Position numbers and translations under genes: made by a program
From: Octopus vulgaris
Lineage: Eukaryota
NCBI GenBank assembly: GCA_951406725.2
Contig: OX597837.1
Span: 15,810,001-15,874,000, forward strand
Reading direction: 5' to 3'
Length of the DNA: 64,000 bases
Shown: positions 36,027 through 37,451 of the stretch, in pieces
Position numbering within the stretch: the first letter of the stretch is position 1
How the letters are laid out: each line of letters starts with the position of its first letter
The notes under the pieces: generated by a model
The model's input: only the letters and a program-made list of their open reading frames with translations
The model's database searches: none
What the model was told of the DNA's origin: nothing

Positions 36027-37451
36027 TCAAAAGATATTTTCCGTATCCAACGCCCTCAACAACTCTGTGCCATTAAGCAGACGATCGCCCGACCAGACTG
36101 GAGCATTCACTTCACAGTCAGTCTGCGTGAGGCGTGGGAGCCACTTGGAGGCTGCAGCCAAGTCTGTGGTGAATGTATACGGCCTCATTAAATTCTGGTG
36201 TTTAGGAATTTTGGCTCTGAATTTCAGATTGTTGTTCTGCATCGCAGAAACGTCTGCTGGTGACATAGGAAGAGATTCAGTGGCCATGCTGTTGCTGCCA
36301 TTCCTTTGCAGGGATAGTTTATCGCCATTGGAAACCAGAAGATGATCGTCATTATCATTGTACTCAAAGTGGTCGCCTGTTTTTGCGTCACGAGGGGAGT
36401 CAGTGGCACAGCTATTGACGGAGAATGTTCTTTTAGCAACAAGTTGCCAAACATTCTCCTCCTCATTGCTGTCATTAGTAGTAGTAGTAGTGTTAGTAGT
36501 AGTTGTAGTAGTGGTGGTCGGTGATGGTGGTGTGCCTTCATGTGAATTTGAAACCCTATTCAGCTGTCCAGCAGGAATGAGATCAACCCCGAACAGTGTT
36601 CGGATATCAAAGGATGAACTTGATGACCTGGCATCAGGCAAGGCATTAGAAAGGCCAGTCGTGTTGTTGACTGCGCTGGTGCCCTCAGCTGAATTTGAAC
36701 CCTTGGTCATCGTGTTTGACAGTGCCTGATCGTTTTGTCCTCCAGGGAGGTGATCCACACCAAACAGTGCTCGGCAGTCATCAAAGAGAAATGATGACAT
36801 ACGACGAGTACTACTACTACTGCTACTATTACTACTACTACTGGTGGCAGCGACCCTGGTGGGATTCTCAACAGAATGAGAGACATCAAAGCTGGGGTTC
36901 CCTTTTGCTTGGGGAAGCCTCTCACCATACAGGGCTTGGATGTCATTGGAGGAGTCTGATTGTAGAGAATTAGGCAAGAGGCAGCCCCCGACCGTGGGGA
37001 TAAGAGTGCTCTTAACTGGATTTGAAACTCTGGTGGCAGCATTCAGTTCTCTCTGATCCAGCTGACCAACTCCAACAAGGTCTTCACCAAACAGCGCTCG
37101 CTTATCGTAGGGTGGGCTCAGACTCCCTTGTACCATGGGAGAAGTAATGTTGGTTGTGGTGCCCTTCATAGAATTTGAAACTCTGATGTTGTTGTTGCTG
37201 CACGAACTGGTGGTAATGACAGAACTGGGACCAGTTAATGTAGGGGACGTGACTGTTGTGTTGAGGGCCCACCACCATGCCCAATCCTGCTCTTCAGGTT
37301 GATTGGTTGACATGGAAGAACCATTGTTGTTGCCATGGGGATTCGCTGCTGTGATGGCCGTGTTGACACTGATTGGGTTCTGGGTGGTTTGTCTTCTGCC
37401 TGTGAAAAACGAGTTGTCCAATTTGGGGAGGGATTCTGCTGGAGTTTGTGT
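36027..37451 (-). CDS. HIF1A: HIF-alpha terminal coding exon with CTAD (1425 nt)
   Basis: Ends [38 protein letters not shown] (FIH-target Asn codon at 36105-36107); acceptor tcttctaacag. Confidence 0.93.
   Translation of the reverse strand, partial: TQTPAESLPKLDNSFFTGRRQTTQNPISVNTAITAANPHGNNNGSSMSTNQPEEQDWAWWWALNTTVTSPTLTGPSSVITTSSCSNNNIRVSNSMKGTTTNITSPMVQGSLSPPYDKRALFGEDLVGVGQLDQRELNAATRVSNPVKSTLIPTVGGCLLPNSLQSDSSNDIQALYGERLPQAKGNPSFDVSHSVENPTRVAATSSSSNSSSSSSTRRMSSFLFDDCRALFGVDHLPGGQNDQALSNTMTKGSNSAEGTSAVNNTTGLSNALPDARSSSSSFDIRTLFGVDLIPAGQLNRVSNSHEGTPPSPTTTTTTTTNTTTTTNDSNEEENVWQLVAKRTFSVNSCATDSPRDAKTGDHFEYNDNDDHLLVSNGDKLSLQRNGSNSMATESLPMSPADVSAMQNNNLKFRAKIPKHQNLMRPYTFTTDLAAASKWLPRLTQTDCEVNAPVWSGDRLLNGTELLRALDTENIF

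Follow-up and report, generated by a model that had tools for sequence, protein, structure and literature searches.

A four-copy L[FY]G motif array in the predicted disordered tail of octopus HIF-alpha, a candidate set of protein-docking motifs

In invertebrates, little of the regulation of HIF-alpha outside the ODD and the C-terminal transactivation domain (CTAD) has been mapped; octopods meet both a high oxygen demand and hypoxia. A 64,000-nucleotide stretch of Octopus vulgaris DNA (contig OX597837.1, positions 15,810,001–15,874,000; termed the window, with positions below counted from its first letter) raises the question of what a repeated sequence is doing in the tail of this well-known gene. 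An initial annotation had described a four-copy repeat of about 55 residues just before the CTAD and had read it as multivalent, amphipathic motifs binding a coactivator or adaptor. Here we ask whether the repeat is coding, how it arose, whether it is under selection and which function it would most plausibly serve.

The window carries a HIF-alpha gene, of which the following parts are relevant for the repeat:

36027–53851, minus strand: HIF-alpha gene, bHLH to CTAD (tblastn, 13 exon-sized matches to P0001)
36027–37451, minus strand: last coding exon of HIF-alpha, 474 aa plus stop (open reading frame and splice joint 37451/38475)
38475–38586, minus strand: preceding exon, encoding a 12-residue segment that holds LxxLL (splice joints; tblastn to P0001 residues 1770–1809)

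The nearest relative of the last exon is the Octopus bimaculoides protein LOC106870896 (P0001, 2318 aa), with 79% identity over the exon, and its 13 exon-sized tblastn matches run from 53851 down to 36030. Pfam assigns the domains bHLH_HIF1A, PAS, PAS_3 and HIF-1a_CTAD to this orthologue, and the window exons match its bHLH and two PAS parts, the hallmark of a HIF-alpha, at 70–100%. Contigs from 4/4 runs, each either presumed to be RNA or of unrecorded type, place the joints 37451–38475, 38586–39094 and 39815–40924 at canonical intron ends; none of the datasets that contain the stretch is recorded as RNA. As the last exon is joined to upstream exons in all four runs, the array is coding.

Several further features of the gene were observed. 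A 48-nt open stretch (38198–38245, minus strand) with acceptor- and donor-like ends keeps the reading frame of the adjoining exons, but 4/4 runs skip it and P0001 lacks it, indicating a possible rare alternative exon. Low-complexity insertions of about 310 aa between the PAS parts (49648–50673, minus strand) and about 650 aa after PAS-B (45063–47015, minus strand) are of the very large kind that brings P0001 to more than 2300 aa. The 12-residue LxxLL segment of the preceding exon (38490–38560, minus strand) fits, in P0001, the strict RxL consensus that is discussed below for the cores. Directly upstream of the array, a Trp-rich WAWWWAL (~37260–37285, minus strand), unchanged in O. bimaculoides, forms an aromatic cluster stronger than that of the repeats. 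Intronic transposase-like fragments at 42652–43056 (plus strand) and 44638–45000 (minus strand) are, by their look, presumably of Tc1/mariner type.

The end of the last exon encodes a recognizable CTAD together with its oxygen-sensing site:

36042–36143, minus strand: HIF-1a C-terminal transactivation domain (Pfam PF08778, 48.1 bits, cut-off 25)
36105–36131, minus strand: FIH target motif LTQTDCEVN, fitting LXXXXX[D/E]VN

This domain aligns with the human HIF-1alpha CTAD chains 1h2k_S and 1l8c_B of the PDB (E 3e-8 to 5e-8), and its target motif follows the FIH consensus LXXXXX[D/E]VN as given in an excerpt of PMC6488082. The genome also contains an FIH exon with the HxD motif on contig C17 (E 2e-24 to human FIH, two exons seen), so that both the substrate consensus and the FIH gene of an FIH-regulated CTAD are present. 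The perfect site and the FIH exon give no hint of an escape from FIH control, and the octopus CTAD is likely FIH-gated in the usual way. The repeats lack the FIH Asn motif, and any putative activity of theirs would thus be FIH-independent. A single L-x-x-R-A-P match, LTFRAP(SAG), lies in a 27-aa exon at 43857–43937 (minus strand) that is identical in P0001 (27/27), and likely represents a putative prolyl-hydroxylation site. The usual form of such a site is LxxLAP-Y-I-P. Upstream of it, near 45340, TEKIFAPRT is a stretch that we take to resemble the N-terminal ODD sites of invertebrates, with a similar stretch in L048.

The array itself consists of four D-x-x-x-L-[FY]-G cores, all in the one 474-aa frame of the last exon on the minus strand, interspersed with a second, companion motif and accompanied by two microsatellites:

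37158–37184, minus strand: companion 0, RVSNSMKGT (repeat family D7)
37059–37106, minus strand: core 1, 16 aa (repeat alignment)
37005–37031, minus strand: companion 1, RVSNPVKST (companion alignment)
36897–36944, minus strand: core 2, 16 aa, the most diverged copy (repeat alignment)
36861–36887, minus strand: companion 2, DVSHSVENP (companion alignment)
36804–36843, minus strand: trinucleotide microsatellite coding poly-Ser, within spacer 2–3
36732–36779, minus strand: core 3, 16 aa (repeat alignment)
36678–36704, minus strand: companion 3, KGSNSAEGT (companion alignment)
36561–36608, minus strand: core 4, 16 aa, the best conserved copy (repeat alignment, conservation)
36531–36557, minus strand: companion 4, RVSNSHEGT (companion alignment)
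36470–36520, minus strand: trinucleotide microsatellite coding poly-Thr, past the array

The L[FY]G elements begin at 37094, 36932, 36767 and 36596, with spacings of 162, 165 and 171 nt, which bears out the four-copy repeat as initially annotated, with the anchors chosen there falling in the Gly codons. The sum-of-pairs score of the four 18-mers was 189, compared to a shuffle mean of 76 and maximum of 110, and 0/200 shuffles of aa 85–312, a region picked after the fact, equalled the repeat score. Pairs of cores have 5–10 of 18 residues in common, copy 2 being the most diverged, and a profile built from the cores picks up four copies each in the exon and in the O. bimaculoides protein, with no fifth core in the window or in P0001. 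The strict alternation of five companions with four cores corresponds to an array of about 4.5 units. The core-to-companion distance varies from 13 to 21 aa (companion spacing 144–183 nt), and the unit is therefore not a rigid 55-mer: the four copies of the proposed ~55-aa unit do recur, whereas its regularity does not hold. Likewise, the companion motif was rightly noticed as recurrent, with DVSHS (companion 2) overlooked among the five, and the placement just before the CTAD has to be corrected, as some 140 aa separate the end of the last core from this domain.

The codons of the copies report on the origin of the array. At positions where the residue agrees, core copies have the same codon in 23 of 46 pairs, compared to 16.0 expected from codon usage (p = 0.03), and the companions in 25 of 45 pairs, compared to 13.3 expected (p = 0.002). 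Shared synonymous codons above the codon-usage expectation favour tandem duplication over convergence, indicating that the array likely arose when a unit of roughly 55 codons was duplicated in tandem. Searching the genome at both the DNA and the protein level located the array nowhere but in the gene and three dead copies of it, which lends no support to an origin of the unit from a transposon or satellite.

On contig C20, these three non-functional versions of the last exon are found near 57.895, 57.991 and 58.002 Mb. They are 97.3–97.6% identical and cover window positions 35183–37440 (exon plus downstream sequence), with the first 11 nt of the exon missing. A TGA at window position 37024 is common to all three, and a frameshift is present in one; (TA)n borders them, and their 3' end carries a short tandem repeat. 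They have been multiplied by duplications of 9–13 kb, some in tandem and some inverted, next to TPR-repeat ORFs, and are possibly derived from a 5'-truncated retrocopy.

For the comparison across species, a core was defined as 16 aa, from Asp-4 to +11, set from the within-protein repeat beforehand. Against O. bimaculoides, 64/64 core residues are identical (16/16 for each copy), compared to 41/45 for the companions and 91/114 for the spacers, which differ by 15 substitutions and 8 gaps (Fisher p = 0.001, substitutions alone). Elsewhere in the disordered regions of this protein, 1113/1363 residues (81.7%) are conserved, a background rate that, with residue type matched, predicts 11.9 core changes where 0/64 were observed; 9.8% of the 16-aa background windows are unchanged, corresponding to 9e-5 for four unchanged ones. 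The unchanged blocks reach past the cores in runs of 37–45 residues, and the unit of selection may thus be wider than the motif. For the RVSNS companion, 41/45 identical residues against the 82% background indicate no clear constraint.

A more distant relative, organism E, is represented by fragments only, from runs X21 and X22, whereas run X23 has no exon coverage. We considered the 40 listed substitutions in 36918–37248, of 51 in the contig piece, with the gapped codons 37098–37130 left out. Among these, cores 1–2 show 6 synonymous changes and 1 replaced codon over 23 codons, compared to 9 synonymous and 16 replaced over 60 codons of spacers and flank (p = 0.033) and 1 synonymous and 2 replaced over 18 companion codons. 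Within the listed substitutions, core 1 from ALFG onward accounts for 4 synonymous changes and 1 replaced codon, and the listed part of core 2 for 2 synonymous changes and no replacement. This synonymous excess indicates that the constraint acts on the protein rather than on the DNA. A scattered 15-nt deletion overlaps D-K-R of copy 1.

A further fragment, P0002, retains core 4 with 15/16 residues identical, whereas 8/16 residues of its core 3 are changed, LF being retained, and the core profile does not pick up this copy. Its cores are kept no better than its spacers (9/32 vs 12/41 changed, p = 1.0), owing to the decay of copy 3. The same 78-nt insertion before the CTAD and the same alignment loss at copy 3 make it likely that P0002 stems from organism E or a near relative. 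In all three species, L[FY] is retained in every readable copy. These data, from three species that are all close, support protein-level selection on the cores. The decay of copy 3 in P0002 and the D-K-R gap of copy 1 in organism E make the copies look redundant, from which we infer that the cores are selected, yet single copies dispensable. Selection with kept cores and diverged spacers, as initially claimed, is thus upheld for the L[FY]G cores against O. bimaculoides and in organism E, and the core-versus-spacer comparison proposed along with it comes out in favour in both; it does not extend to the companion, to copy 3 or to P0002 as a whole.

We next turn to the physical character of the array. 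AlphaFold2 yielded a mean pLDDT of 32 for the last exon, with values <50 for 473/474 residues, from a shallow 3-row alignment that weakens the disorder reading. The exon is hence predicted to be disordered, and the best reading of the array is that of short motifs set within such a tail. A folded tandem-repeat domain was rejected on the irregular companion spacing of 144–183 nt and on these pLDDT values. The array is 34% S/T/N with a net charge of −2 over 226 aa. Acidic domains have a charge below −3 and a predictor wants −9 or lower, according to PMC10550315. Using 39-aa tiles, a charge of −9 or lower and >=7 W/F/Y/L (at least seven) as the definition, no acidic activation domain was detected in the exon: the best tiles around the cores reach −2 to −3, and 0/436 exon tiles pass even a laxer −8, in a test that is weak since the genuine CTAD fails it too. 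The hydrophobic moments of the cores over 8 residues fall at the 37th–71st percentile of the exon and are thus unremarkable. The pattern hydrophobic-x-x-L-[FY] is fitted by copies 2 and 4, whereas three places before L, where a large hydrophobic residue would be expected, copy 1 has K and copy 3 has C. A complex prediction of copy 4 with the CBP TAZ2 domain of this genome scored 0.02 against a mark of 0.34, peptides lying outside the calibration. In this genome the coding sequences of CBP TAZ1 and KIX, like those of the cyclin A/B/D/E boxes, are each divided among several exons. Clusters of intronless, divergent cyclin-like genes of 277–365 aa are found on contigs C4 (103.1–103.2 Mb), C8 (72.2 Mb) and C25 (19.6 Mb).

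Taken together, the sequence evidence suggests with moderate confidence that the cores form a protein-docking motif array. The fuller reading, to which we give slightly less than even weight, is that the four L[FY]G cores would serve as docking motifs, each of them weak and in part replaceable by the others, with a coactivator surface as the most probable partner; a coactivator groove is preferred because the array adjoins the CTAD and resembles x-x-L-F activator motifs. Each core would fold into a short D-x-x-x-L-F-G helix turn upon binding, its Leu-Phe would enter a hydrophobic groove of the partner, and the multiple copies would contribute avidity beside the FIH-controlled CTAD, in the way that Gcn4 WxxLF engages Med15. 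That docking of a coactivator by the cores would also raise activity is a tentative proposal by analogy, which we consider rather doubtful. From the multivalent motif-binding reading of the initial annotation, a short protein-binding motif stays the most likely element, whereas the near-neutral charge of the array, −2 over its 226 aa, and the ordinary hydrophobic moments of the cores speak against the partner and the activating role proposed there. It would be more speculative still, and in our estimate unlikely, that octopods made an Asn-free multivalent activation module by duplication, recruiting a coactivator oxygen-insensitively beside the FIH-gated CTAD, with the working copy number as a dial of the hypoxia output.

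The repeat could instead be a duplication relic in an expansion-tolerant tail, subject to a loose constraint on composition or spacing, with at most copy 4 being of importance. The whole protein is hugely expanded, with long low-complexity insertions among the 2318 aa of P0001; copy 3 has decayed in P0002, an indel strikes copy 1 in organism E, and the companions have even synonymous codons in common, reflecting descent. Moreover, the spacers contain microsatellites, so that the contrast between kept cores and lost spacers among copies is partly an ascertainment effect. The absence of change in 64 core residues where 11.9 changes were expected, and the synonymous excess in cores 1–2 of organism E, however, are at odds with a mere relic, which we judge somewhat unlikely. 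At the level of DNA or RNA, a non-coding repeat, a transposon relic or a mis-assembly might be suspected from the three additional exon copies on contig C20, but in 4/4 runs (presumed RNA or of unrecorded type) the exon forms part of the spliced HIF-alpha message, its frame is open in three species with synonymous changes dominating the cores, and the genome searches place the array nowhere outside the gene and the dead copies, rendering such an artefact hardly credible.

Other partners have been considered as well. The cores may bind a negative or trafficking partner, for example with copy 4 as a CRM1-type nuclear export signal and the others as weakened duplicates. IRTLFGVDL of copy 4 is the sole match in the exon to six export-signal spacing patterns, one of which it fits, and this copy is retained in all three species and it is followed by an S/T-P pair (aa 307, 310). 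The spacing pattern is degenerate, however, with 1/4 copies fitting, and the selection on copies 1–2 would be left unexplained. Gly and Pro disfavour a helix, and both lie inside the copy 4 pattern. In favour of this reading, human HIF-1alpha has an atypical CRM1 signal with Ser-Pro sites nearby in the same protein region, between the two activation domains (residues 616–658; excerpts of PMC7865418 and PMC8637566). On balance, a negative or trafficking partner appears improbable for the octopus array. A cyclin-docking function, bringing cyclin-CDK to nearby S/T-P sites, of which the last exon has 8, comes to mind from the R-x-L-F-G of the cores, which we take to resemble the docking motif of the p21/p27 family. 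Three of the four copies fit the loose consensus [RK]xLx{0,1}[FL] of type 1 RxL motifs and show both the preferred RxLF core and acidic residues on its C-terminal side, yet the strict consensus, which bars D/E/W/N/S/G at P-4, is matched by 0/4 copies because the invariant Asp occupies this position; <15% of even strict matches bound cyclins (both consensus forms and the binding data from PMC12356897). With the Arg missing in copy 2, replaced in copy 3 of P0002 and overlapped by the gap in copy 1 of organism E, cyclin docking is quite improbable. A set of weak docking motifs for a coactivator surface stays our preferred reading.

Homologue searches delineate the distribution of the array. It matched no Pfam family and no ESM Atlas cluster (aa 85–310 and aa 272–310), and a PDB sequence search gave one chance match (E 0.31). 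In word searches, P0001 was the sole match among 7974 candidates (and among 16) and P0002 among 7982; phmmer against 1.84 billion representatives returned only these two. As the searches returned no CTADs of other animals, they do not imply absence in squid, cuttlefish and other molluscs. A metagenome protein scan confirmed 0 of 212 pattern matches, and a metagenome DNA-pattern scan found the motif in 0/3 non-octopus HIF-alpha 3' ends (best E 2), only one of them with a long CTAD exon, which makes this a weak negative. Within the literature searched, largely open papers, no account of an octopus HIF-alpha repeat was found, and the word 'octopus' occurs 0 times in the main texts of PMC5470732 and PMC6488082. 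The array appears to be limited to one lineage, a set of short motifs under selection within an otherwise familiar gene, and is as such of modest interest. A selected duplicated motif with copies retained or lost by species would provide a test of short-motif birth in a disordered activator tail, and its four cores are exact mutation targets; our understanding of the HIF pathway would be altered only if a partner and an effect were demonstrated.

Compared with metazoan HIF-alpha in general, the octopus protein has the domain order, the CTAD and the FIH target Asn motif in common, and differs by its size (>2300 aa in O. bimaculoides) and by the four-copy array between ODD and CTAD. The central activation domain of Gcn4, whose WxxLF binds Med15, likewise presents x-x-L-F in a disordered tail, possibly multivalently; in the excerpt of PMC13004512 this motif requires Trp and an acidic context, whereas the octopus context is neutral and S/T/N-rich, with K, I, C and I in the first position. 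Unlike the Gcn4 motif, the octopus cores probably arose by tandem duplication, and the analogy is functional only, without homology. With the type 1 RxL motifs (PMC12356897, in part) 3/4 octopus copies share the RxLF core and trailing acidic residues, and the octopus cores depart from them by the Asp at P-4 in all copies and the loss of Arg across species. The ERK-targeted domain and export signal of human HIF-1alpha (PMC7865418 and PMC8637566, in part) is likewise a hydrophobic motif in the ODD–CTAD interval with Ser-Pro nearby, but is present in a single copy; the likeness drawn here is one of position and motif type. Finally, the HIF1alpha of electric fish gained SUMO-interacting motifs (excerpt of PMC10958119), a precedent for lineage-specific motifs near activation domains tuning HIF; there, point changes in single motifs have measured effects, whereas the octopus tail carries a duplicated array.
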